From an uncultured Candidatus Binatia bacterium (GTDB lineage: Bacteria > Desulfobacterota > Binatia > UBA9968 > JAJDTQ01), in NCBI GenBank assembly GCA_965221155.1, contig OZ244869.1, positions 2,584,772 through 2,648,771 of the forward strand: a stretch of DNA of 64,000 bases. Direction: 5' to 3'. A model generated the notes under the pieces. The model ran no database searches and was not told where the DNA came from. It saw nothing but the letters and a program-made list of their open reading frames with translations. The stretch's first letter is position 1. Every line of letters begins with the position of its first letter. Positions 4,585-29,260 of the stretch are shown here, one piece after another. The position numbers and the translations under genes are program-made.

Positions 4585-5349
4585 TCAAGACTTCAGGTCC
4601 TGCGGGCGCTGCTGAAGCGAAACGGCGCTGTGGCTGCCGAACTCGATGGTCTTGCCGTACAACCCGCGCGCGGGGTCGCTGAGAAGGAAGGCCGCCACCG
4701 CGGCCACTTCCGAGACCGAAAGGGTTTCGCCGCCGCGCGCCGGCCTGGAGTCCGCGCGCGGCGGGTCCTTGTCACCGGTGGTCCGCAACACCGGCGCGGG
4801 TTTCAGTACGTTCAGGGTCACGTTTTCCCCGACCACCTCCGTCGCGACGGATTGAAGCCACGCTGGCAGTGCGGCGCTGGCGACCGAGTCGAAGTGTCTT
4901 TCGGCGGCGGTCCCCGGGATCGGCCAGGGCACCATCCAGAGCACCCGGCCCCACTGCCGGCGCTGCATGCCGGGCAGGAGCGCTTCCGTTGCGGCCTTGA
5001 AGCGCAGGAAGCCGTTGTCGAGCCGGGCTCTCCAGGACAGCGTGGGCTGGTCCTCCTGCAACGTGCGCCGGGCGATGCCGAACAGTATGTCGATGGCGCC
5101 GAAATCGGCGATGACACGGTCCATCAGGGCGGCGGCCGACGGTTCGTCCCATGCGTCCAACCGGTACCCCACGGCCTTGACGCGGCCCGCCGCCGCGGCC
5201 TCGGCCGCGACCTTTCGCGCCGCCCATTCCTTGCGGGCGCACACCGCCACGTTGGCGCCCTCGGCCGCCAACGCCCCTGCTACGGCTCGGCCGATTCCCC
5301 GGGACCCCCCGAAGACCAGTGCGCTTTTTCCCTTGATGCCGAGATCCAT
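4585..5349 (-). CDS. SDR family oxidoreductase (short-chain dehydrogenase/reductase)
   Basis: Rossmann motif 'KSALVFGGSRGIGRAVAGALAAEGANV' (TGxxxGxG). Start moved to internal ATG (MDLGIKGK...), giving a typical ~254-aa SDR. Confidence 0.85.
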   Translation of the reverse strand: MDLGIKGKSALVFGGSRGIGRAVAGALAAEGANVAVCARKEWAARKVAAEAAAAGRVKAVGYRLDAWDEPSAAALMDRVIADFGAIDILFGIARRTLQEDQPTLSWRARLDNGFLRFKAATEALLPGMQRRQWGRVLWMVPWPIPGTAAERHFDSVASAALPAWLQSVATEVVGENVTLNVLKPAPVLRTTGDKDPPRADSRPARGGETLSVSEVAAVAAFLLSDPARGLYGKTIEFGSHSAVSLQQRPQDLKS

Positions 5350-5499
5350 GGCCGTCAAGAACGCGTGAGCCGCAAGAGGCCTTCCAGCGCCACCAACAGC
5401 GCGTAGTGCGCCAGCAACAGTGCGTAGCGGGTCAGCAACCACAGGCACCGTCCCGCCAAAGGGATGATCCCGCGGCCGCGTTGCGACTTGTCCAGTGAC

Positions 5500-7776
5500 C
5501 TATCCATTACGCGCCTCCATCTGCTGTTGCCCGGTGAGCACCGGCGGATGTTCGCCCGCCAGGTCCTGGGCCAGCTCCACATCCCTGCGCACCATGTCTG
5601 CAAAGTAACCGTCGCCCCGGCCAAGCTCCGCGGGCGTGCCTTGCTCCTCGATCTTCCCGCGCTGCATGCAGATGACGCGGTCCGCGTAACGCAGCGCGGA
5701 CAACCGGTGGGCGATGACGATGATCGTCCGCCCCTGGGCCAGCGCGCGAATGTTTTCCTGGATCCGAGCCTCGTCCTGCTTGTCCACCGAGCTGGTGGCT
5801 TCGTCCAGAATCAACACGCTTCGCCAATGGAACAGCGCCCGGGCCAGTGCCAGACGCTGTCGCTCGCCGCCCGAGAGAAGTGTCCCGCGGGCGCCGACCC
5901 GGGTGGCATAGCCCTTGGGCGTCTGCGTGGTGAACTCGTGGGCGCACGCCGCCTTGGCCGCGGCCGTGACCCGGGCCATGTGGTGCTGACCCGGTGCCAG
6001 GGCGATGTTGTCGGCAATGCTGCGCCGAAAGATGGGATAGTCCTGCTCTACCGTGCCGATGTGACTGCGGATCCAGTCGGGGTCGACGACCGCGGCGTCC
6101 GCGCCGTCCAGGAGGATGCGCCCTTCGGTGGCGAGGTAGAGTCTCTGGATCAGGCGGCCGACGGTGCTCTTCCCCGAACCCGATGGACCGACGATGCCTA
6201 CGGTCTCGCCGGGTTTGATCTCGAACGTGACGCCGTCCAGAGCGTTTCGGCTTCCGTCCGGGTAGCGGAAACGCACGTCCTCGAAACGGACGGCGCCCTT
6301 GAAGGAAGGAAGCCGGACGAGATGTCCGCTCTGGCGTTCCGTGGGTTCGTTGAGCACGGTTCCCAGCTCCTTCACCAGGCCGCGCAGCCGGGAAAAGTCA
6401 TAGGCGAACAGGCACAGACGCATCATGGGCTGGGAGAAGCGCATGTTCACCAGGTTGACCGCCACGAGCTGCCCCAGGGTGAGTTGCCCGTCCAGCACCA
6501 TGGAGGCTCCAAACCACAGCAGGCCCGCGGTGCCCAACCGGTTCACGAACTGGTTGTACTGAGTCATGGACTCCCGCAGATTCTGGGTGTCCTCTTCGGA
6601 CGACACCGTCTCATCCACCCGTTGGGTGAGGAAGGCTTCCTGGGCATGCTCCTCATGCATGCCCTTCACGGTCTCGATGCCGTTGAAGGTATCGAGCACG
6701 GCTTCGTTGCTCTCCCGCCGGCTGCCCTTGGTTCGCCGGCTCCATCGCTGGAAGGTCGGCATCACCAGGAACGCCGGGGCGACGTAAAGGGGCAGGCAGG
6801 CCAGAATGACCATGGACAGGGTGAAGCTGAAGTTCAGCATCAACCCCAGGAACACCAGCACGAAGAAGATGTCCACGAACACGAACACCACGGCGTTGGT
6901 GAGGAACCGGCGCAGGTGCTGAAGCTCTTCGATGCGGGAAAGGGTCTCGACCGCGGTGTTCTGGAGGTAGAAGGCCGCGGGAAGCTCCAGGGAGTGGCGG
7001 ATGAGCCTTGAGAGCAACGTGCGGTCCATGGCCCGCACCGCGTGACGCAGGGCTTTATGGCGGGCAACGCGGAGGACGGCCTCGAAGGCCAGAAAGAATA
7101 GCAGACTCACGATGATCACGTCGAGGGTGGCGGCGCCGCGATTGGATATGACCTTGTCGATGATGATGAGGAAGGCGAAGGGGTAGATGTAGCCCAGGAG
7201 GTTGACGAAGAAGGACGCCGCCACCAACGGCCCGAAAAGCGCTTTGTTGTTCAGGAGATGCCCGGCGATGGACCGCACCGTGAAGGTCTGGTGCTCGGCG
7301 TCCGCCGTCTTTGTGGGGATTGCGGCCGCGCTGCCGCAGTCCTCCACGAAGGCCGCGCGCCGCGCGGCCCCGGCGTTGCCGGAGCGCGGATCTATCAGGT
7401 AGACGTTGTCGTCGTCGGCGCCCGCGACAAGGGCGAACCGGCCGTCCCCGCGCCGCACCAGGACCGGTGCGGACAGGTGGCGCCAGTCCTCCGGGCTCAG
7501 AGTCTTGACCTCGAGAGCGAGGCCGGCACGAGCGCCGCACTTCACCGCGGCGTTCAGATCGAGGGTTTTTGCCTCGGTGAGATGGTGCAGGATCTCGCCC
7601 CGGCTCGTTCGGAGTCCCTGTCCGGCGCACAGGAACAAGAGGCATGCCACGGCGGATGCGGCAGGGTCCCCGACGCCGGCCGGCGGTTGCTTCGGGGGAT
7701 CGGGATTGCCTGCCCGGCCGGCGAGGCCGCCCGCCAACCTGTTGCCGTCAGCCACGGCTCTCGTCCCGGAGATCAT
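5500..7776 (-). CDS. ABC exporter with N-terminal peptidase-C39-like domain, 6-TM domain and C-terminal NBD (bacteriocin/RiPP-type or T1SS-type exporter)
   Basis: N-terminal ~150 aa aligns to C39 (Cys region 'SAVACLLFLCAG'). The expected His region reads 'GDGRFALV', i.e. Arg where catalytic His is expected. Central TM block, then NBD with GPSGSGKST, LSGGERQRLALARAL, LILDEATSSVD. Overlaps the 3' end of the DUF2063-like gene. Confidence 0.85.
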   Translation of the reverse strand: MISGTRAVADGNRLAGGLAGRAGNPDPPKQPPAGVGDPAASAVACLLFLCAGQGLRTSRGEILHHLTEAKTLDLNAAVKCGARAGLALEVKTLSPEDWRHLSAPVLVRRGDGRFALVAGADDDNVYLIDPRSGNAGAARRAAFVEDCGSAAAIPTKTADAEHQTFTVRSIAGHLLNNKALFGPLVAASFFVNLLGYIYPFAFLIIIDKVISNRGAATLDVIIVSLLFFLAFEAVLRVARHKALRHAVRAMDRTLLSRLIRHSLELPAAFYLQNTAVETLSRIEELQHLRRFLTNAVVFVFVDIFFVLVFLGLMLNFSFTLSMVILACLPLYVAPAFLVMPTFQRWSRRTKGSRRESNEAVLDTFNGIETVKGMHEEHAQEAFLTQRVDETVSSEEDTQNLRESMTQYNQFVNRLGTAGLLWFGASMVLDGQLTLGQLVAVNLVNMRFSQPMMRLCLFAYDFSRLRGLVKELGTVLNEPTERQSGHLVRLPSFKGAVRFEDVRFRYPDGSRNALDGVTFEIKPGETVGIVGPSGSGKSTVGRLIQRLYLATEGRILLDGADAAVVDPDWIRSHIGTVEQDYPIFRRSIADNIALAPGQHHMARVTAAAKAACAHEFTTQTPKGYATRVGARGTLLSGGERQRLALARALFHWRSVLILDEATSSVDKQDEARIQENIRALAQGRTIIVIAHRLSALRYADRVICMQRGKIEEQGTPAELGRGDGYFADMVRRDVELAQDLAGEHPPVLTGQQQMEARNG

Positions 7777-8533
7777 TGCCGTTCACCAGTACGAGGCCCT
7801 GGGTCGCAAGGCGTTTGATGAGGGCGACGCGGACGTTGTCGTCGGGTCCGGCTTCCTCCGACGCCAGCGGTGACCATTCCATGGAGCGTTCCAGCAGTGC
7901 GAAGGCCTCCGGCGCGAGCTCCAGCACCATGGGTTGGCGCCGCCCGCGCGAGGCCAGGACGGCGAGGCACACGGGTCGTTGGGCCACCGGCTCGCCGGAC
8001 CGGCCGGGCTCGAACAAGGGCCGCACATCGTACCTGCAACGCACCAGAACGGCACAAGGGTGGGTGCGGTACCACAAGTCAACCGAGGGTTGCGGGCGCG
8101 CCGCCAGGGCCTCGCTTTCCATGGCCGTGGGGCGAAGTGTCCGCGCCCCTGCCATAGCCAGCTCGATACCCGCGACGTCGACGGCCCATGCCGGCGTCGG
8201 CGGTTTCTGGGCGGCGCGTTTCAGAAAATGGCCGAAGAAGCCCTTGGCGTCCGGGTAGCGTTCATAGGTCCTGGGCGGACATGCGGACGCGAAGTCGCGT
8301 GTGAGGGCCGTGAAGCCGTGACCGAGCAGGGTCGCGGTGCGTTCGAAGGTCTGGCGGATTCGGTTCATTCTCTTGCTGTAGGAGAACTCCGCTTCCAGCC
8401 AAAGCCGTCGGATGTCCATGCCCTCGAGGTCCGAATCAAGGCCGGCCGACCCGAGGTCCCGGGTGCCGAAGATGAAGGCATGGCTGGTCAGATGACGCAG
8501 TAGGCTGGTCTGGGTGTCAATGAGTCTGCGCAT
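7748..8533 (-). CDS. MNIO partner protein, DUF2063-like (putative; TglI/MbnC/BufC-position gene)
   Basis: 261-aa ORF overlapping the DUF692 gene stop by 17 nt (translational coupling), the position always occupied by the DUF2063-type partner in MNIO operons. Family call rests mainly on synteny and size, not on a motif I can verify. Confidence 0.45.
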   Translation of the reverse strand: MRRLIDTQTSLLRHLTSHAFIFGTRDLGSAGLDSDLEGMDIRRLWLEAEFSYSKRMNRIRQTFERTATLLGHGFTALTRDFASACPPRTYERYPDAKGFFGHFLKRAAQKPPTPAWAVDVAGIELAMAGARTLRPTAMESEALAARPQPSVDLWYRTHPCAVLVRCRYDVRPLFEPGRSGEPVAQRPVCLAVLASRGRRQPMVLELAPEAFALLERSMEWSPLASEEAGPDDNVRVALIKRLATQGLVLVNGNDLRDESRG

Positions 8534-9401
8534 GGCTTGCGGACCTCTCTTTCATGGTGGCTTTCTGTGTTTGCCGGCGGAGACGCGCCACGTCCGCCAA
8601 GAGATCGTCGCCCTGTTCGAAGTCGTTGTCGCGCTCCAGGATCACCGTTTCCGGCCGCTGCCGGTGAAGGGTGCGTTCCAACAGCTCCAGTGCCTGCTCC
8701 GGCACCGGGTGGCTGTGGTTGTCGGCGTGGAACGGCGCGTCGAGATAGGGCCGGTGAATCAACGGTCCGCCGGCCGCGTGAACACCGGTCACCACACCGG
8801 CAGGCAGTTGGTCCAGAAACCCGTGCGGGTCGATGCCGTGGTTCTTGGAGTTGACGAACAGGTTCTCCACGTCCAGCAGCATGCCCACCCCGGTCTCCTG
8901 GAACAGCAAGTTGAAGAACTCCGCGTCGCTCATCTCCCCGTCCGGGAAATCGAAGACGTAGGAGATGTTCTCGATGGAGAACGGTACCGGCAGACGGGCC
9001 TGGATCCGCTCGATCTTGGGGATCAGCATGTCCGCGGCGGCGCGGGTCTTGGGCAACGGCAGCAGGTTGGCGATGTCGATGCCGGGCACCTTGGTCCATG
9101 CCAGGTGCTCGCTGTAGGACGGGATCTTGAGATCCTCGATGGCCTCGGCCACACCGTCCAGGTACGTTTCGTCAAGGGGCGCGTCCGTGCCGATGGAAAG
9201 TCCCACTCCGTGCAACACCAGCGGAATTCTGTCCACCAGGTTGAGGATCGCCTTGCGCGCGTATTCGCCGCCCTTGATGTAGTGGTCCACGGTAATCTCG
9301 AGCACGTCGAACCGATGCAGGTTGGCCAGCGTCCACTTGGCGATGGGAACGCGGAAACCGATGCCGATCAGGGGTGACGGGGATGAGAACGAAGTGTCCA
9401 T
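8517..9401 (-). CDS. DUF692 / MNIO-family enzyme (multinuclear non-heme iron oxidative enzyme; MbnB/TglH/BufB-like)
   Basis: N-terminal 'LIGIGFRVPI...FDVLEITVDHYIKGG...IPLVLHGVGLSIGT' matches DUF692 hallmark blocks (GlGlR, EihsEny, HGvslSlGs). TIM-barrel size (294 aa). GGGAGG RBS 5 nt before ATG. Confidence 0.8.
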   Translation of the reverse strand: MDTSFSSPSPLIGIGFRVPIAKWTLANLHRFDVLEITVDHYIKGGEYARKAILNLVDRIPLVLHGVGLSIGTDAPLDETYLDGVAEAIEDLKIPSYSEHLAWTKVPGIDIANLLPLPKTRAAADMLIPKIERIQARLPVPFSIENISYVFDFPDGEMSDAEFFNLLFQETGVGMLLDVENLFVNSKNHGIDPHGFLDQLPAGVVTGVHAAGGPLIHRPYLDAPFHADNHSHPVPEQALELLERTLHRQRPETVILERDNDFEQGDDLLADVARLRRQTQKATMKERSASHAQTH

Positions 9402-9619
9402 GAAGCCTCCCGTGCCAAAGCAGGATTGTTGTCTCGACGGGTGCTACCCGTGGTTCGGTTGTACGCGTCGAGCCTCCGCGGGCGTCGCGTTCGTGGTTCG
9501 AACTGCGACGCCTTACACAGATACTAATCGTTCGGGCGGCCCTGAACTTTAGCGTCCGACGGGGTGGGAGGCACAATTTTGCGGCAGGCTGGTGTTTGTG
9601 TTTTCTTTGTGGCACCGCC

Positions 9620-9775
9620 CTCCGACTCCCTCTCCCTTTGGGAGAGGGTTGGGGTGAGGGAACCTCGTGGCACGCCGGCTGGGGTTAACGGCAGGGGATG
9701 GGAGGGGCAGGGTTGTTGGGGGCCCTCACCCGGCCTTCGGCCACCCTCTCCCAGGGGGAGAGGGGTTGAGATTGG
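9620..9775. repeat. ~155-bp intergenic palindromic element, family D (CTCTCCC...GGGAGAG arms), copy 1
   Basis: Reverse complement matches 29095-29260 nearly end-to-end: 'cctctcccnnngggagagggtggccgaaggccgggtgagggc...ccctcaccccaaccctctccc'. Internal inverted repeats. Confidence 0.8.
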
Positions 9776-9814
9776 GGAAGCCGGGGCGGACCTTGGGTCG
9801 AACGGCGGCGGCGG

Positions 9815-10828
9815 TCAGCTATCGAGGTCCATGCCCACGACCCTTGCGGGGTTCCGGGTGCAGACGGTGTGGAGCTCGTCCTGGGTCAGGCCGAAGGCCT
9901 CCATGTACCCCCGGATGAGGCGCATGGCTTCCACGGAGTCGGGGAACAGCGGCTCGCCGGCGTCGCTGGACAGGGCGAAGTGCTCCACCCCCACCTCGCG
10001 GATGGTGTTGTACATGATCTGAGGATCGACCCCCAGCAGCGGCGACAGCTCGTCGAAGGTGAAGTTGAACAGCACCCCCAGTGGGGCCAGTTCCTTCATC
10101 TGTTCCACCGACACGTCGAGAAAGGGGCTGTAGGGGTGGTCGATGACCATCCGGGTGAGGCCGAGCCTGGCTCCCTCCTCGGCGATCTTGAAGATCTCCT
10201 CGTGGGTGGGATGGCCGAAGAACAGCGCCACGTCGCGCTCCGCGCACAGGCGGATGACGTCCCGCACCTCGGGCTTGAGCTCACCCGATTCGTCGACATT
10301 GTAGTGGCCGTACTCCAGCGCCTTTTCCCAGGACATGGGGCCCACCCAGCCCTTCGCATCCATGTCGTGCTCGAGGAGGGAGCGCCGGCTCCCCACCGTA
10401 TGAATCGTGTTGGCGTGGTTGAACACCGGAAGCCACAGGGCGATGACCCCTTCGTCGAGGGCCTGCTCCGCCAGACTGGCGGACACCGGCTCCTCCTGCC
10501 TGCCGCACACGAAACCGGCGAACAGGCGTACCGGCGTTACGCCCTCCGGCTCGGCCCAGCCGTCGAGCTGCTGCTGGAGCTCGCGGGCCGCGCGGCCGGC
10601 GTTTCCGATGATGGACTTGAACAGGATGCCCTTCATCTCGGCCCGGGAGGCCTTCTTCACCAAGTCCATGGCGTCCTGCTGGCCCGCGTGGGCGTGACAG
10701 TGGATGTCGATGGCGTCCTTGACCTTGATGTGGTCGGGGTGGACCACGCCCGGCTTGTATTGCGTGCGCGCCGCGTAGGAGGTGACACACCGTTCCTGGG
10801 TCCGCGTCGAAACAACGTTCTCGCTCAT
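9815..10828 (-). CDS. metal-dependent hydrolase, amidohydrolase superfamily (TIM barrel)
   Basis: Start reassigned to ATG at 10828 (MSENVVSTRT...) preceded by AAGGGAG RBS. His-rich N-terminal motif 'DIHCHAHAG', Asp/His-containing C-terminal blocks. The 462-aa ORF-track version has an implausible Arg/His-rich N-extension. Confidence 0.55.
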   Translation of the reverse strand: MSENVVSTRTQERCVTSYAARTQYKPGVVHPDHIKVKDAIDIHCHAHAGQQDAMDLVKKASRAEMKGILFKSIIGNAGRAARELQQQLDGWAEPEGVTPVRLFAGFVCGRQEEPVSASLAEQALDEGVIALWLPVFNHANTIHTVGSRRSLLEHDMDAKGWVGPMSWEKALEYGHYNVDESGELKPEVRDVIRLCAERDVALFFGHPTHEEIFKIAEEGARLGLTRMVIDHPYSPFLDVSVEQMKELAPLGVLFNFTFDELSPLLGVDPQIMYNTIREVGVEHFALSSDAGEPLFPDSVEAMRLIRGYMEAFGLTQDELHTVCTRNPARVVGMDLDS

Positions 10829-10913
10829 CGTTGATCTCCCTTCATCACGGGCCGGGATCGGACGACGGGGACCGCGTCGGATACGGCTGGCCGTGCATTG
10901 TGATAACATGGCC

Positions 10914-10946
10914 ATAGTAGACCCTCGAAACTCGAAACGAAAGAGG
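10914..10946 (+). promoter_or_regulatory. conserved 5'-leader motif (copy 1) upstream of yeeE/yedE-like gene: atagtagaccctcgaaactcgaaacgaaagagg
   Basis: Near-identical ~33-nt sequence recurs at 15297-15329 upstream of the LLM gene (atggtagactctcgaattccgaaacgaaagagg). Ends in the RBS. Confidence 0.45.
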
Positions 10947-10960
10947 AGAGTACCGTCCCC

Positions 10961-12004
10961 ATGTTCGAGACGCTCGGATTCCAGCACGTCACTCCGCTCC
11001 AGGCGTCCGTGGTGCTGGGCCTTGTGCTCGGCGCCGTGTACGGCGCGCTGGCGCAGCGCACCGGGTTCTGCCTCCGCCGCAGTCTGGTCGGAGACCGGAA
11101 CGAATGCCTTCCGGCGCTCGGCGTCTGGGCCATGGCATCGGCGATGGCGATTGCCGGGACCCAGGGGGCGGTGGCCGCGGGAGTGGTCTCCTTCGACGCG
11201 CACCGGTTCCTCGCGCCCGACCTTCCCGTCGTTGCGGTCCTGGTGGGCGGCGCGCTGTTCGGCGCCGGGATGGTGCTCAGCGGCGGCTGCGTCTCACGTC
11301 TCGCGGTTCTTTCCGGCGCCGGCAACCTGCGGGCGGTCCTTGTCCTGGTGGTCTTCGCGATTGTCGCCCACGCGGCGATGAAGGGAGTGCTGGCGCCGTT
11401 GCGCTCGGCACTCGCCGGGATAACCGTTGACCCCGGTGGCGTGGTTGCGCTGACCGCACTGCCCGGCGGGGCCGTCTGGGCCTGGAGTCTGGCGCTCGCC
11501 GCCGCGGTCCTGGCGTTGCGTTCCGGCGCGTCGCGTCGCCACCTGGTGATGGCTGCGCTGATCGGGCTCCTCGTGCCGCTGGGATGGGTCGGGACCGGTT
11601 TTGTCCTCCAGGACGGCTTCGACCCCTTGCCGCTGCAGTCCCTGGGATTTACCGGGCCCACGGCCGACACCCTGTTCTGGACCATGGCGGCCACCGCCAT
11701 TCCCGCGGGATTCGGAACCGGTCTTGCAGCCGGCGTGGTGGCCGGAAGCGTTGCCGCTGCGGTTTCCGCGGGCGAGTTTCGCTGGGTCAGCCTGGAAGGG
11801 CCGCGGCAGACCGGCCGGTACCTTGCGGGCGCCGCGTTGATGGGAACGGGCGGTGTCCTGGCGGGTGGTTGTACGGTGGGGGCCGGACTGTCCGGTGTGT
11901 CGACCGCGAGCATTGCCGCGATCCTGGCGCTCACGGCGATGGTGACGTCGGCAAGGATCGCGGGAAGATTTCTAGCCCAGGAGCCGACGCGGACAGTGGC
12001 CTAG
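10961..12004 (+). CDS. YeeE/YedE family sulfur-compound transporter (thiosulfate transporter TsuA-like)
   Basis: 347 aa, ~9-10 TM helices, two repeat halves each with the conserved Cys-containing loop (QRTGFCLRRS ... GGCTVGAG). Confidence 0.8.
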   Translation: MFETLGFQHVTPLQASVVLGLVLGAVYGALAQRTGFCLRRSLVGDRNECLPALGVWAMASAMAIAGTQGAVAAGVVSFDAHRFLAPDLPVVAVLVGGALFGAGMVLSGGCVSRLAVLSGAGNLRAVLVLVVFAIVAHAAMKGVLAPLRSALAGITVDPGGVVALTALPGGAVWAWSLALAAAVLALRSGASRRHLVMAALIGLLVPLGWVGTGFVLQDGFDPLPLQSLGFTGPTADTLFWTMAATAIPAGFGTGLAAGVVAGSVAAAVSAGEFRWVSLEGPRQTGRYLAGAALMGTGGVLAGGCTVGAGLSGVSTASIAAILALTAMVTSARIAGRFLAQEPTRTVA

Positions 12005-12181
12005 GAGCCTGCGTCACAAATACGCTTATGAATCTGCGGGTCCTTTTGGCCGTCGGCTGCGTTGCTCTTCCTCGCGTGGTGCACGCCACTGCTCGTCCTG
12101 AGCGTAGCGAAGCGGAGTCGAAGGACGCCTTGCCGACAACCAAAATGCCCTCGCAGATTCATAAGCGTATTTGTGACGCAG
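12005..12181. repeat. MITE-like element, family F: 28-bp terminal inverted repeats CACAAATACGCTTATGAATCTGCG flanking ~120 bp that contains a family-C palindrome
   Basis: TIR at 12005-12033 and inverted at 12153-12181. Second copy in opposite orientation at 25856-26026. Confidence 0.8.
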
Positions 12182-12220
12182 GACACTAGGAGCCTGCGCC
12201 GCAGGAACCCGGCATCCGAT

Positions 12221-12345
12221 GTAGGGGCGGGTTTCAAACCCGCCCGTGCCCGCACGGCGCTGCCGGCCGATACAGGCTCCTAGGCGACTGGAACGCGGAC
12301 TGCCCGGACGAGGCATGTAGGGGCGACCGGCCGGTCGCCCCCACG
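12221..12345. repeat. REP family A unit (GTAGGGGCGGGTTTCAAACCCGCCC) plus variant palindrome GTAGGGGCGACCGGCCGGTCGCCCC
   Basis: 21-bp perfect palindrome GGGCGGGTTTSAAACCCGCCC preceded by GTAG. Variant core also at 35342-35369. Confidence 0.8.
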
Positions 12346-12395
12346 GGATTCCGCCGTGGCGTAGGGCCTCTAAGAGCCTGTCCGCTCCCTCACCA

Positions 12396-13700
12396 TCAAC
12401 CGAAAATGTCCTTGGAAAAGCCCGCGTACCAGCCGAGCGATTCCTTGTAGGTCGCCTTGCGCAACTCTGCGCTCTCTCCGGTCTTCGATATGAAGCCGTC
12501 CGTCTTGGCGATCTTCTCGTCGGTGGCCTTGTAGGAGGCGCCGACCTTGACCCCGTCATCGGTTTCGATAAGCGACCAGCAGGTGTTCGAGAAGCGCGCC
12601 GGAAACACCTTCGAGCCGGTCAGCGCCCCTCGCACCGCCATGGCGCACACCTTGGCCTGGCTGTTGGCGGAAAACCCGGACTTGGGCATGTCGCCCTGCT
12701 GGGAGGCATCGCCGAGGACGTGGATGTTGTCATCCGCCCGGCTTTGCATGGTATGCGGCACCACCGGGACCCAGCCGGCCTTGTTCGTGAGCCCGGCAAC
12801 CGCGGCGATGCGCCCCGCCTGTTGCGCCGGAATCACGTTGCAGACGTCCACCTTGGTCACCTCGCCGTCGATCACCACCTCCATGGACCCCGGGCGCACT
12901 TCGACCTTGTCGCCGCCGAAGTCCGGGCCGACCCGCTCGATCATGCTGGGATAGTGGCGCTGCCAGCCGTCCTCGAAGAGCCCTTGCTTGGAGAACTTCG
13001 CCTTCGGGTCGACGATCAGGATCTTCGCCGTGGGATTGGTCTGTTTCAGCGCGTGGGCGACCATCGAGATCCGTTCGTAGGGTCCCGGCGGGCAGCGGAA
13101 CGGGTTGGGCGGCGCCACCATGCAATAGACCCCGCCCTTCCGCATGGCCGCTACCTGCGCCTTGAGGAGCTGCGTTTGCGAGCCCGCCTTGTAGGCGTGC
13201 GGCATCCGGTTCTGCTGCGACAGGTCCCAGCCGCGAACCGAGCCGGGGCGGAAGTCGATGCCCGGCGACAGGACGAGCCGGTCGAAGGGGAGGCTGCCGC
13301 CGCCCGCGAGCCCTACCGTCCGGCGGTCGTGGTCGATGGAGACGGCCCAGTCGTGAACCACATTGATGCCGTAGGTCGCCGCAAGGGTCCCGTAGCTGTG
13401 CCCGAGGGACGCGAACTCACGGAAACCGCCAAGGTAGAGGTTCGAGAAGAAGCACGAGTAATAGTGCCGGGTGGGTTCCACCAGGGTCACATCGATGGCG
13501 CCTTTCGAATCCTTCGCGATGTAGCGCGCGGCGGTCGCGCCGCCGGCGCCGCCGCCGATCACCACCACCCGCGGGCGGCTCTGCCCGAGCACGGGACCCG
13601 CCCACAGCGCGGTGGAAACCCCGATGGTTGACGCAAGGAAACGCCGCCGGGTCATGCCTGTTTTTTTGTTCTGCTCTTTCACGATGCCCCTCCTTCTCAT
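12396..13700 (-). CDS. fccB: flavocytochrome c sulfide dehydrogenase, flavoprotein subunit (FccB/SoxF-like)
   Basis: Tat motif TRRRFLAST. N-terminal FAD fold 'VVVIGGGAGGATAARYIAK'. Overall FCSD architecture (434 aa). ATGA start/stop overlap with upstream cytochrome gene. Confidence 0.85.
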   Translation of the reverse strand: MRRRGIVKEQNKKTGMTRRRFLASTIGVSTALWAGPVLGQSRPRVVVIGGGAGGATAARYIAKDSKGAIDVTLVEPTRHYYSCFFSNLYLGGFREFASLGHSYGTLAATYGINVVHDWAVSIDHDRRTVGLAGGGSLPFDRLVLSPGIDFRPGSVRGWDLSQQNRMPHAYKAGSQTQLLKAQVAAMRKGGVYCMVAPPNPFRCPPGPYERISMVAHALKQTNPTAKILIVDPKAKFSKQGLFEDGWQRHYPSMIERVGPDFGGDKVEVRPGSMEVVIDGEVTKVDVCNVIPAQQAGRIAAVAGLTNKAGWVPVVPHTMQSRADDNIHVLGDASQQGDMPKSGFSANSQAKVCAMAVRGALTGSKVFPARFSNTCWSLIETDDGVKVGASYKATDEKIAKTDGFISKTGESAELRKATYKESLGWYAGFSKDIFG

Positions 13701-14419
13701 GGAACGCCGAGCGATCGGCCAAAATACGTCGCGAGCGCGGCGATCTCCTCGTCTGACAAACGCCTGGCGATGGTCTGCATCGCCGCGTGCCGCCGGTTGC
13801 CGTGTTTGTACGCCTGTAGCGTTATCACGAAGTCATCGACCGGCCAACCCGTTATGGAGGGAATGCCTTCGTCGACGCCGTCCGCCCGGTGACAAGTGGT
13901 GCACTCGCTCGCGAGATAGGCGCCGTATTCGGGGTCTCCCCGGATCGCGAGGAGTTGCGGGTCGAGTTCGTATTCGGCCGCGGTCATGGTCGGTTCCGCC
14001 GCCGGAAGCCCGGGCCGGGCGCCGGAAAGGGTACGCAGCCACGCCACCAGATCCGCCCTGTCGCCGGGCGCGGCCATGCCGTCATAGCTCATGCGCGACC
14101 GTGGCACCATCTTCCGCGGGTTCGCCAAAAAGGGGTCCAGCGTCTTCTCGGTCCAGACCAGCCCGCCGGCGCCGGCCTTCCTCATCGCCGGAGAGTAGCG
14201 GAAGTCCCGGAGCGAACCGGCCCGGCGGCCGAATACGTCGTTCAGGTGCGGACCGATCCGGTGCTGCGCGCCTTGGCCCGCCTGATGGCAGCGCTTGCAT
14301 TGCTGGTAGAGCGCGTTGCCGCGCCGCGGGTCCGCGCCTGGGGCTCCGGTGGCGACGAGAACCGCGAGAAGAGCCGAGGCAAGCATCGCGAAACCCGCGG
14401 GTTTCGTGATGCGCCTCAT
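13697..14419 (-). CDS. fccA: diheme cytochrome c (flavocytochrome c cytochrome subunit FccA-like)
   Basis: Start reassigned to ATG 14419 (MRRITKPAGFAMLASALLAVLVATGAP signal peptide). Two CxxCH motifs (CKRCHQ, CTTCHR). Confidence 0.75.
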   Translation of the reverse strand: MRRITKPAGFAMLASALLAVLVATGAPGADPRRGNALYQQCKRCHQAGQGAQHRIGPHLNDVFGRRAGSLRDFRYSPAMRKAGAGGLVWTEKTLDPFLANPRKMVPRSRMSYDGMAAPGDRADLVAWLRTLSGARPGLPAAEPTMTAAEYELDPQLLAIRGDPEYGAYLASECTTCHRADGVDEGIPSITGWPVDDFVITLQAYKHGNRRHAAMQTIARRLSDEEIAALATYFGRSLGVP

Positions 14420-14441
14420 TCGGCCTCGGGATTCGGGAACG

Positions 14442-14780
14442 TCAGGATCTGACCTCGACCCGCCTGCTGAGACGGTATACGGAGCCATCGTCATCCACCC
14501 ATTCGAATTCCATCTCGCCCGACTCCTGGACGGCCATCTCGAAACTGAAGTACGGGTCGGCGGACACCGCCCGCTCGAGATCCACGGATATCGTCTCCTC
14601 CCCATTGTAGCGGGCCACGAACCGGTTGATGATCCGGCGAGGAATTCGTTTCCCCTCACGGTCGAGGCGGAGCCCGGTATGCATGGGATGGGTGATCCGG
14701 GTCCTGACCGTGAAGGGAACGCCCACGGACACCGACTTCGGCAGTTTCACGCGCGGCCTGGGTTTCGCCATTCCATTCAC
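14442..14780 (-). CDS. soxZ: thiosulfate-oxidation carrier complex protein SoxZ
   Basis: 112 aa. Blocks 'ITHPMHTGLRLDREGKRIPRRIINRF...NG...AVSADPYFSFE...ESGEMEFEWVDDDGSVY' match SoxZ consensus (ISHPMESG..DGK.IPR.IINRF...NPYF.F...SG...F.W.DDDGSVY). Confidence 0.8.
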   Translation of the reverse strand: MNGMAKPRPRVKLPKSVSVGVPFTVRTRITHPMHTGLRLDREGKRIPRRIINRFVARYNGEETISVDLERAVSADPYFSFEMAVQESGEMEFEWVDDDGSVYRLSRRVEVRS

Positions 14781-15206
14781 CTAGCAACCGCCCGCCGTCA
14801 CCTTGATCGAGCGGGAGGTCACCCGAAACGTGCCGTCGGCCATTTCCGCAACGGCGATCAGCCTCTGGCTCCGGGCCAGCCGGATACGGGTCGACGCCGC
14901 GGGCGTGATCCACTTTCCAAAGGTAAAGACGGCGACGCCGGGACTCGGATTGCTGTCCGCGAAAACGGCGATGCGCCGGGCGCCTTCGGCGGAGACCCGG
15001 ACCGGCACGGCGCCGCCGTTGTCGGCGATCTCCGGGGCTTCGATGCGGACACCGCCCTCGACCGGCACCGCTCCCTTGGTGAACGCCGCGATGGCCCGCG
15101 AGGTGTCGGTGGATGCCCGGACGAGGCGGACGGGAAGGAACGCGGCTGCGGACGCCGCAAGCGTCGCGCCGGCGAAAGCAAGTATGTCCCTGCGGGTAAG
15201 GTCCAT
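14781..15206 (-). CDS. soxY: thiosulfate-oxidation carrier protein SoxY
   Basis: Tat signal MDLTRRDILAFAGATLAASAAAF. C-terminal carrier-cysteine motif ...VTAGGC-COOH. 1-nt gap to soxZ. Confidence 0.8.
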   Translation of the reverse strand: MDLTRRDILAFAGATLAASAAAFLPVRLVRASTDTSRAIAAFTKGAVPVEGGVRIEAPEIADNGGAVPVRVSAEGARRIAVFADSNPSPGVAVFTFGKWITPAASTRIRLARSQRLIAVAEMADGTFRVTSRSIKVTAGGC

Positions 15207-15296
15207 GTTCGTCACCAAAAAAAACTACCATGAGGCACGGAAGGGGTCCATCGGCCGGAGCCCCTCCCTGCTTGCCGCGCGCCCCGATCCCTTCTA

Positions 15297-29094: not shown

Positions 29095-29260
29095 TCCCTC
29101 TCCCTCTGGGAGAGGGTGGCCGAAGGCCGGGTGAGGGCGCCCCAACAACCCTGTCCCGCCCATTGTTCCCCAATTCAACGGGCCGCTTGCAACGGATACC
29201 CTCACCCCAACCCTCTCCCGGAGGGAGAGGGGGTCGGAGGCCATTGTCGGAGCAAGACCC
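29095..29260. repeat. family D palindromic element, copy 2
   Basis: Reverse-complement match to 9620-9775. Confidence 0.8.

Follow-up and report, generated by a model that had tools for sequence, protein, structure and literature searches.

A precursor-less MNIO operon of an uncultured Candidatus Binatia bacterium as the probable reduced half of a split RiPP-like system with its precursor in trans

As a source of unusual peptide chemistry, multinuclear non-haem iron oxidases (MNIOs) are growing fast, and MNIO operons of the orphan kind are both common and difficult to interpret. One such operon is located in a 64,000-nucleotide stretch of contig OZ244869.1 from an uncultured Candidatus Binatia bacterium (hereafter the window), in which the genes of an MNIO, its partner protein and an ATP-binding cassette (ABC) exporter follow each other with no precursor gene in front of them. 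The question raised by this locus is which substrate the three genes serve and where it is encoded. The answer that we favour, and hold to be probable, is that the window carries a reduced chromosomal copy of a cassette resembling those for peptides that are made on ribosomes and modified after translation (RiPPs), that the system is split with the precursor supplied in trans, and that its products contain thiooxazole-type heterocycles. The preliminary description of this DNA had recorded three overlapping co-directional genes, and all three were recovered as minus-strand open reading frames (ORFs; Table 1), with consecutive overlaps of 17 nt (MNIO/partner) and 29 nt (partner/ABC) and a third-position GC of 0.79–0.85, as in real genes of the source genome.

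Neither the 413-bp spacer upstream of the MNIO gene (9402–9814), as had been stated earlier, nor the rest of the 64 kb contains a plausible precursor in cis. Only one small ORF of at least 20 aa is listed on the coding strand of the spacer, a 49-aa GTG-initiated ORF that crosses a palindromic repeat and is not conserved. Cys-rich ORFs are lacking in the spacer and in every intergenic stretch of the window, the few Cys-dense ORFs elsewhere in it being GC-rich coding DNA read out of frame. A tblastn search of the window with the precursor family described below gave no homologue (best E=0.18), and clustering of stop-to-stop intergenic ORFs from 27 loci gave only repeat-derived or off-frame families. 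Nor does any of about 22 syntenic loci in other Binatia have a Cys-rich ORF or a precursor-family homologue. Two explanations offered in the preliminary description can be set aside here. A precursor hidden behind a non-canonical start is contradicted by the spacer, which is not conserved as coding sequence (an alignment of 16 upstream regions gave no coding signal). Displacement of the precursor by insertion of the repeat was rejected, because orthologous loci free of the repeat, with spacers of ~190 bp (e.g., L001/L005), are equally precursor-less.

The closest genomes are metagenome-assembled genomes of uncultured Candidatus Binatia, with locus L003 (OZ253480) 96% identical at the MNIO. The ~22 syntenic loci share the operon with the three ORFs intact and MNIO identities of 77–96%, in the order flavocytochrome c sulphide dehydrogenase, sulphur transporter, DUF6282, MNIO, partner, ABC and, further on, short-chain dehydrogenase/reductase (SDR), polysaccharide deacetylase and lytic transglycosylase. 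The operon genes are maintained, since pairwise dN/dS values of the MNIO, partner and ABC genes are 0.17–0.41.

The view that these three genes are the whole system did not hold, and the operon proved to be a derivative of a cassette of up to eight genes. The order in the full cassette is precursor, (S9 peptidase), MNIO, partner, ABC with a C39-like domain, HlyD, TauD, SDR, (S9 peptidase), and its additions over the three genes are thus the precursor, the S9 peptidase, a membrane fusion protein of the HlyD family, a TauD-type Fe/2-oxoglutarate dioxygenase and the SDR. In many syntenic loci, and in paralogous copies at other sites of those genomes, the ABC gene is followed by genes for an HlyD-family protein of ~445 aa, a TauD/TfdA dioxygenase of ~330 aa and an SDR. 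Complete cassettes with an adjacent precursor were found at L018, L037, L038 and L040, and partial or variant forms with a precursor at L016, L025, L029 and L030; in at least eight independent loci, the precursor gene stands directly upstream of (S9 and then) the MNIO gene in the same orientation. The SDR gene of the window is 66% identical to the one that follows TauD in the paralogous cassette L020, and an SDR occupies the equivalent position in L018, L037, L038 and L040. Distant relatives retain the core of MNIO, partner, ABC and HlyD with swapped accessory enzymes, which include a class IV aminotransferase, an M17 peptidase and a glycosyltransferase; the partner of L029 is 38% identical to that of the window, and the MNIO of L030 is 61% identical.

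Several cassettes adjoin genes for a TrwC relaxase, a phage-type integrase, GpA terminase-like proteins and transposases, and such neighbours suggest that the cassette travels on mobile elements. These genes lie at 1–2869 and 16987–18183 in L038, 6026–8083 in L018, 8550–9503 in L020 and 11789–12943 in L002. The genome OZ243984 has three MNIO copies of the cassette family, and in the paralogue L016 truncated ABC/HlyD genes stand beside a transposase.

The trace of the reduction is found at the end of the ABC gene. In the window the SDR gene starts only 150 bp beyond the ABC stop, and a 50-codon ORF occupies this stretch. The stop/start overlap ATGGATAG at the end of the ABC gene is shared by this ORF and by hlyD of the complete cassettes, its start MDRS matches the hlyD start MDRSRRRA..., and a 24-nt stretch of it has 92% identity to L012. 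In at least 10 HlyD-less loci the ATG and stop of the ORF do not vary while the protein sequence drifts, and L004 and L006 replace its hydrophobic stretch. Judged from these letters, the ORF reads as a remnant of the hlyD 5' end. The comparison of loci shows that hlyD and tauD were deleted in the lineage of the window and that a scar was left, with the MNIO, partner, ABC and SDR genes kept.

The precursor gene has a separate existence in relatives. The 77-aa protein P0220 is a stand-alone precursor on a chromosome of 4,998,810 bp that also bears the reduced operon L009, ~241 kb away provided that both records share coordinates. The P0220-type locus, in which the precursor is placed between Cupin_2/EutA/PALP genes on one side and ADH_zinc on the other, recurs in L035 and in L036, in both with an S9 peptidase in addition and in L036 with two tandem precursors. 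Stand-alone precursors are present at L031, L035, L036 and L039, that of L039 being a further orphan. At L033 the neighbour of a precursor is an HlyD homologue, the 8.5 kb available upstream contain no MNIO, and the contig ends inside the HlyD gene. In OZ243984, a window-like operon (L006, with the C39-like domain kept and without HlyD/TauD) has a precursor ~130 kb off at L016, beside two further MNIO copies. Division over two loci with the precursor in trans is therefore demonstrated in relatives, and we infer the same for the operon of the window, where the substrate gene would be missing because in relatives it stands either next to the enzyme gene, within full cassettes, or at a locus of its own. 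Among the four options of the preliminary description, the one in trans is favoured by these stand-alone precursors, one of which shares a chromosome with a syntenic operon. Routinely orphan MNIO–partner pairs had been named there as a finding that would speak against a RiPP-type role. Taken literally, such pairs occur at the ~22 precursor-less syntenic loci, yet the role is not refuted by them, because the stand-alone precursor loci in relatives account for them.

The precursor genes surfaced in a scan for cysteine-dense ORFs across loci; no precursor is recognizable at the window locus, as had been noted, but the family does have one, a Cys-Gly-repeat protein. The proteins begin with a leader of ~30 residues, continue with a (Cys-Gly/Cys-Ser)n tract (e.g., CGCGCGCGCGCGCGCGCGCDCGCSSCCCGCG) and an acidic spacer, and end in a C-terminus that varies. 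The leader follows the pattern ..PW.LD..DLDLE[IV]HG (e.g., MQLHDDAGQSSSITTLWVLSPRDDDLDLEVHG) with P16, W17, L19, L26, E29, H31 and G32 invariant, and the proteins have neither a Sec signal peptide nor a Lys-Cys motif. An exhaustive HMMER profile search recovered 26 precursor representatives among 1.84 billion proteins, and a word-indexed search with the precursor profile gave at least six matches. The profile found nothing in viral contigs and one partial locus (L034) in JGI metagenomes.

The C-termini differ widely between members. Those of P0234, P0238, P0239, P0242 and P0244 are M15/Hedgehog-like (SGT[DE]GxH..HYSGxAxDxR..HIH[IV]EYD), those of P0224, P0227, P0229 and P0231 are Gly/Ala-rich and hydrophobic, and the stand-alone forms of 72–77 aa have short tails; some precursors end in a Gly/Ala-rich hydrophobic stretch followed by NDESFxKAxETLLVVH. 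They look interchangeable, as in polymorphic toxins, and one may speculate that what is secreted is a polymorphic effector and not a simple metallophore. At 285 aa, a free-standing protein with an M15-like end is encoded upstream of an MNIO copy at L002 (6468–7325) and has a weak, sub-threshold Peptidase_M15_3 match. At L039, a predicted membrane protein of 167 aa (8361–8864) is encoded directly upstream of the orphan precursor P0223, which has a Gly/Ala-rich hydrophobic C-terminus, and may be a putative immunity-type partner of it.

The enzyme gene of the window had been assigned to the MNIO (DUF692) family, and the profile check agreed, with 243 bits for PF05114 (MbnB_TglH_ChrH; cut-off 25) over residues 12–276, that is, profile positions 2–260 of 263. 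Among the NCBIfam models, BufB (NF050167) ranks first with 199 bits against a cut-off of 310 and HvfB (NF003818) second with 180 bits against 360; ApyH, ChrH and MbnB rank far behind, MbnB with a weak 42.8 bits against 325, and every model stays below its equivalog cut-off. The enzyme is thus a member of the superfamily that has BufB/HvfB as its nearest kin and stands outside the BufB, HvfB, MbnB, ApyH and ChrH equivalogs. The candidate metal-site residues H64, H99, E144, D177, N180, H208, D227, H229 and E256 each show at least 99% conservation across 111 members of the family, the ligands of sites 1 and 2 being assigned after the MbnB structures. The nine residues align with the corresponding motifs of 3BWW, the nearest solved structure (E=2.1e-37), followed by TglH (1.4e-17) and MbnB (5e-6). 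3BWW is 72% identical to HvfB (preprint), and the N..D.H triad of the MNIO matches the HvfB site-3 residues N175/D242/H244 reported in the preprint.

The partner has no Pfam or NCBIfam match at E<=0.01, and its 96 homologues in total are each at least 38% identical. It had been called DUF2063-like, which is right at the level of fold only, because the profile match is sub-threshold (PF09836, 13.6 bits against 27.2; the best relative reaches 21.3) while the structural model matches TglI and NGO1945. The AlphaFold2 model (alignment of 37 homologues; pLDDT 86.3, pTM 0.82) has a helical DUF2063-like N-domain and a C-domain of beta-sheet and helix, of the winged-helix kind seen in RiPP recognition elements (RRE-like). 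In Foldseek its sole significant solved matches are TglI (8hi7_A, E=1.3e-6; 8hci_A, E=1.1e-4) and the DUF2063 protein NGO1945 (3dee, E=7.5e-5), and MbnC is marginal (E=0.39). A PME-type 2 partner is encoded after the MNIO, has no DUF2063 signature and resembles NGO1945 (3dee) or TglI (8hi7) in structure (Antoine et al., 2025; PMC12452194). By gene order and modelled fold, the partner of the window fits this definition and not that of PME-type 1.

The exporter has intact ABC motifs and matches ABC_membrane (E=1.2e-34) and ABC_tran (E=1.4e-29); its top NCBIfam model is TIGR01846 (type_I_sec_HlyB, 545 bits, under the cut-off of 725), its best single-chain solved match is HlyB (7sgr), and its gene has an alternative GTG start at 7755. 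The C39-like domain announced in the preliminary description was found to be of the HlyB type (CLD), and the catalysis that the name might imply was not borne out. The Peptidase_C39 match is sub-threshold (19.2 bits, cut-off 22), the N-terminal domain alone gave nothing significant against the PDB, and the similarity surfaced only after the query was extended into the membrane domain. At the position equivalent to the catalytic Cys the exporter has Ser41, and Ser or Thr stands there in 14 of the 14 aligned family members, in an alignment with an HlyB sequence of which part is provisional. R113 aligns with the catalytic His96 of ComA, with a gap opposite H83 of HlyB. The domain is therefore not a double-glycine leader peptidase, a role that was rejected since both catalytic Cys and His are absent; it is a predicted non-catalytic C39-like domain.

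About half of the orthologous exporters are entirely without the CLD (599–650 aa vs ~755 aa), with such genes at L001/L005, L008–L011, L013–L015, L017, L019, L021–L024 and L026. Loss of the CLD is independent of the presence of HlyD/TauD, and each of the four combinations is seen, a pattern that implies either recombination or more than one loss. That a dedicated exporter lies outside the described MNIO systems agrees with the papers that were searchable, in which no such exporter was found; within the same library, searches joining MNIO with type I secretion, HlyD, TauD, C39, prolyl oligopeptidase or Binatia gave nothing relevant, and a search on Cys-Gly repeats brought up only papers about repeats in DNA.

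Table 1. Positions of the operon, its retained neighbour and the elements around it in the 64-kb window
Feature	Position	Strand	Basis or remark
SDR (short-chain dehydrogenase/reductase), retained cassette member	4585..5349	-	adh_short and adh_short_C2 matches
50-codon ORF MDRSLDKSQRGRGIIPLAGRCLWLLTRYALLLAHYALLVALEGLLRLTRS (MDRSLDKS...), hlyD scar	5355..5507	-	ATG lies on the ABC stop codon; 6 nt from its end to the SDR start
HlyB-type (type I secretion) ABC exporter, 758 aa	5500..7776	-	ABC_membrane + ABC_tran
Predicted non-catalytic C39-like domain (CLD), exporter N-terminus, ~residues 37-150	7327..7668	-	alignment with the HlyB CLD
MNIO partner, 261 aa	7748..8533	-	fold match only, no family above threshold
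MNIO enzyme (PF05114), 294 aa	8517..9401	-	Pfam E=3.4e-72
Conserved upstream element: promoter-like motif 9520-9552, then GC hairpin 9481-9512	9481..9552	-	alignment of 16 upstream regions
Repeat with two palindromic units (family-D repeat), outside the system	9628..9764	.	units 9628-9648 and 9744-9764

Taken together, the probable course of events in the split system would be as follows. The precursor would be supplied in trans from the second locus, and the RRE-like domain of the partner would bind its conserved leader. The MNIO would then oxidize the Cys of the Cys-Gly dyads, the likely product being a 5-thiooxazole or a related heterocycle or thioamide, since the nearest kin of the enzyme are of the BufB/HvfB type with its preference for Cys-Gly. 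The SDR, together with TauD where present, would tailor the product further, a peptidase would remove the leader (with the S9 peptidase trimming the product), and the ABC exporter would secrete it, aided by a membrane fusion protein and by an outer-membrane channel whose genes lie elsewhere. Several points weigh against this account. The window has no S9 peptidase, HlyD, TauD homologue or TolC-type channel, so that export competence is no more than putative, and no outer-membrane channel component was identified at any locus. No precursor of the source genome is seen in its available 64 kb, and the link between operon and precursor is drawn from co-occurrence in one complete chromosome and from the synteny of the orphan loci. 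The dN/dS values of ~0.25–0.4 denote only moderate constraint, and the predicted chemistry is an analogy, given that the MNIO scores far below the BufB/HvfB equivalog cut-offs.

Some of these losses could also be expected of a decaying relic that has shed its precursor, membrane fusion protein and dioxygenase and makes no product any more. The deletion of hlyD and tauD with its scar, the disappearance of the C39-like domain from ~half of the orthologues, the truncated paralogue at L016 and the absence of a cis precursor from every syntenic locus all agree with decay. We nevertheless consider it unlikely, as the three ORFs are intact in ~22 genomes at 77–96% MNIO identity, dN/dS is 0.17–0.41, the metal-site residues are invariant with the ABC motifs intact, and the stand-alone precursor locus is conserved in related genomes. 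A substrate might also be present locally and have escaped recognition, be it DUF6282, the 50-aa scar ORF or a non-peptide small molecule exported by the ABC protein. DUF6282 always precedes the operon in syntenic loci, the conserved 50-codon ORF is coupled in translation with the ABC gene, and published abstracts describe MNIO chemistry that widens beyond Cys. Against this, the paralogous cassettes lack DUF6282 and keep the Cys-Gly-repeat precursor, the protein sequence of the scar ORF is not conserved (L004, L006), the partner has a predicted peptide-binding RRE-like fold, and every characterized MNIO acts, to our knowledge, on a peptide or protein; a local substrate is thus very improbable.

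The Cys-Gly-repeat proteins themselves could be co-located cargo, metallothionein-like or toxin, with the MNIO modifying something else. The link between the enzyme and these proteins is one of genes alone, and many members carry long variable C-terminal domains, some M15-peptidase-like, that look more like an effector than a classical RiPP. Such cargo would hardly be expected, however, directly upstream of (S9 and then) the MNIO in the same orientation at the eight or more independent loci mentioned, nor with a conserved N-terminal leader before the Cys tract, as expected for recognition by the partner; moreover, the pattern published for MNIO substrates is that of Cys-rich proteins without a signal peptide, encoded beside an MNIO with a PME-type-2 partner (PMC12452194), and we regard cargo as a poor prospect. 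The split system with a precursor in trans remains the preferred reading. A bolder extension of it, tentative and on balance doubtful, is that the MNIO turns 8–20 uninterrupted Cys-Gly dyads into a poly-thiooxazole/thioamide tract fused to interchangeable C-terminal modules, which would be M15-peptidase-like, Gly/Ala-rich and membrane-active, or none. RiPP chemistry would here underlie an architecture of polymorphic effectors, type-I-secreted and splittable across the chromosome, with a conserved orphan enzyme/exporter operon like that of the window serving precursors elsewhere, and it would constitute an uncharacterized product class of Binatia and related uncultured bacteria.

Comparison with known systems places the cassette among MNIO pathways without equating it to one of them. 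The captophorin class is defined by an MNIO, a PME1 partner and a Cys-rich precursor (DUF2282, Lys-Cys or Cys-Lys type), and MNIOs of the BufB/HvfB/FonB type install 5-thiooxazoles, FonB with a preference for the Cys-Gly dyad (PMC13097082). The likeness to captophorins (bufferins, oxazolin and fontiphorin; BufABC, HvfABC and FonABC) lies in BufB/HvfB as top MNIO models, in 3BWW as nearest structure, in Cys-rich substrates with Cys-Gly dyads and in a two-domain partner gene after the MNIO. The differences are that the MNIO falls far under the equivalog cut-offs, the partner fails the DUF2063 model, and the cassette precursors lack a Sec signal and have uninterrupted (Cys-Gly)n instead of EGKCG or DUF2282 motifs; export is predicted to go through ABC/HlyD rather than Sec, genes for TauD, SDR and S9 peptidase are added, and no DoxX gene is in the Pfam lists of the L037, L038 and L040 cassettes. 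As predicted from its genes, the system is outside the captophorin class as defined, since its partner is not PME1 and its precursors are (Cys-Gly)n proteins with no Lys-Cys and no Sec signal.

The pearlin enzymes TglHI of the Pseudomonas syringae 3-thiaglutamate pathway are similar in that TglI is the best structural match of the partner, TglH is the second-best solved relative of the MNIO, and a signal peptide is absent from the precursor; a gene for a peptide-aminoacyl-tRNA ligase (PEARL) was not seen, however, a multi-Cys repeat stands in place of the single C-terminal Cys, and the MNIO of the window is nearer to the HvfB type than to TglH. With methanobactin (MbnABC), the system would share an MNIO and partner acting on Cys of a leader-bearing cytoplasmic precursor and the export of the product, whereas the MbnB score and the MbnC fold match are weak, as given above. 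Methanobactin precursors have 25–30 aa with two modified Cys, and the product is exported by a MATE pump. The resemblance to HlyB/HlyD/TolC lies in the top NCBIfam model and top single-chain solved match of the exporter, in its predicted non-catalytic N-terminal CLD and in the HlyD-family gene that overlaps the ABC stop codon in complete cassettes. It ends at the sub-cut-off score (545 vs 725), at a substrate that is not of the RTX type and has an N-terminal leader, at the deletion of HlyD in the window and at a CLD that is dispensable in half of the orthologues.

The nearest published description is that of adjamnio-I, with 100 sequences of 122–293 aa, 8–21 Cys and no family signature (Antoine et al., 2025; PMC12452194, Table 2) and genes in the order precursor, MNIO, PME-type 2; in the same work, precursors that lack a signal peptide go with PME-type-2 partners (PMC12452194), a rule to which the present cassette conforms. 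By description, the Cys-Gly-repeat precursors fit the adjamnio-I group and may belong to it. The main text of that paper (PMC12452194) does not contain "ABC transporter", "HlyD", "TauD", "type I secretion" or "C39", has one passing "transporter" and makes no mention of split loci.

The region upstream of the MNIO gene has features of its own. A promoter-like motif, CTAAAGTTCAGG-N14-GATTAGTATC, is conserved in syntenic loci and is followed by a GC hairpin (GGCGTCGC/GCGACGCC), the stem sequence of which differs between genomes with the pairing kept. The element may be a promoter with a structured 5' leader. The motif has no match to the sigma-70 consensus, the sigma-70/terminator scan was uninformative, and an Rfam scan of the spacer, hairpin included, gave no meaningful match. 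The palindromic unit of the repeat farther upstream is CCCTCTCCC-NNN-GGGAGAGGG, and paired units are ~116 bp apart. An identical pair lies at 29096–29116 and 29211–29231, which makes 4 matches in the window vs 0.03 expected, and the orthologous spacer of L003 has several tandem copies. The repeat looks like a REP/MITE-like intergenic element that is unrelated to the operon.

Although DUF6282 precedes the operon in every syntenic locus, it was rejected as a member of the system, being absent from the paralogous cassettes. Its ORF in the window (9815–11203, minus strand, 462 aa) is over-extended, and the true start is probably near 10825–10900, since the domain begins at residue 163 and orthologues have ~336–365 aa; as listed, the long ORF overlaps the divergent sulphur-transporter gene (10961–12004, plus strand). 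A sulphur-oxidation neighbourhood (10961–15218) adjoins the operon, with Sulf_transp confirmed by Pfam, a flavocytochrome c sulphide dehydrogenase (12396–13700) ~90% identical to the annotated L001 orthologue, and SoxY/SoxZ-like genes (14442–15218) assigned from the L001 annotation. These genes have no evident functional tie to the MNIO operon, because the paralogous cassettes lack such a context.

Among the MNIO RiPP systems, the cassette family is an uncharacterized variant, striking in its substrate and unusual in its route of export. In the preliminary description, the observation itself and the module of MNIO, partner and exporter have stood, the precursor in trans is the option favoured, and the displaced precursor and the non-canonical start have fallen. 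The orphan state of an MNIO operon is explained here by a deletion derivative of a mobile cassette and a separate, conserved precursor locus, the window being probably the less informative half of the split system, and the analysis has yielded a defined family of candidate substrates, marked by a leader motif and by a core of (Cys-Gly)n. If all cysteines become heterocycles, a metal-binding or bioactive polymer of unusual density would result, and if the proposed route is true, an MNIO product would leave the cell via an ABC/HlyD type I system with a C39-like domain, a link that is new among the searchable papers. For genome mining, precursor-less MNIO loci are therefore worth keeping.

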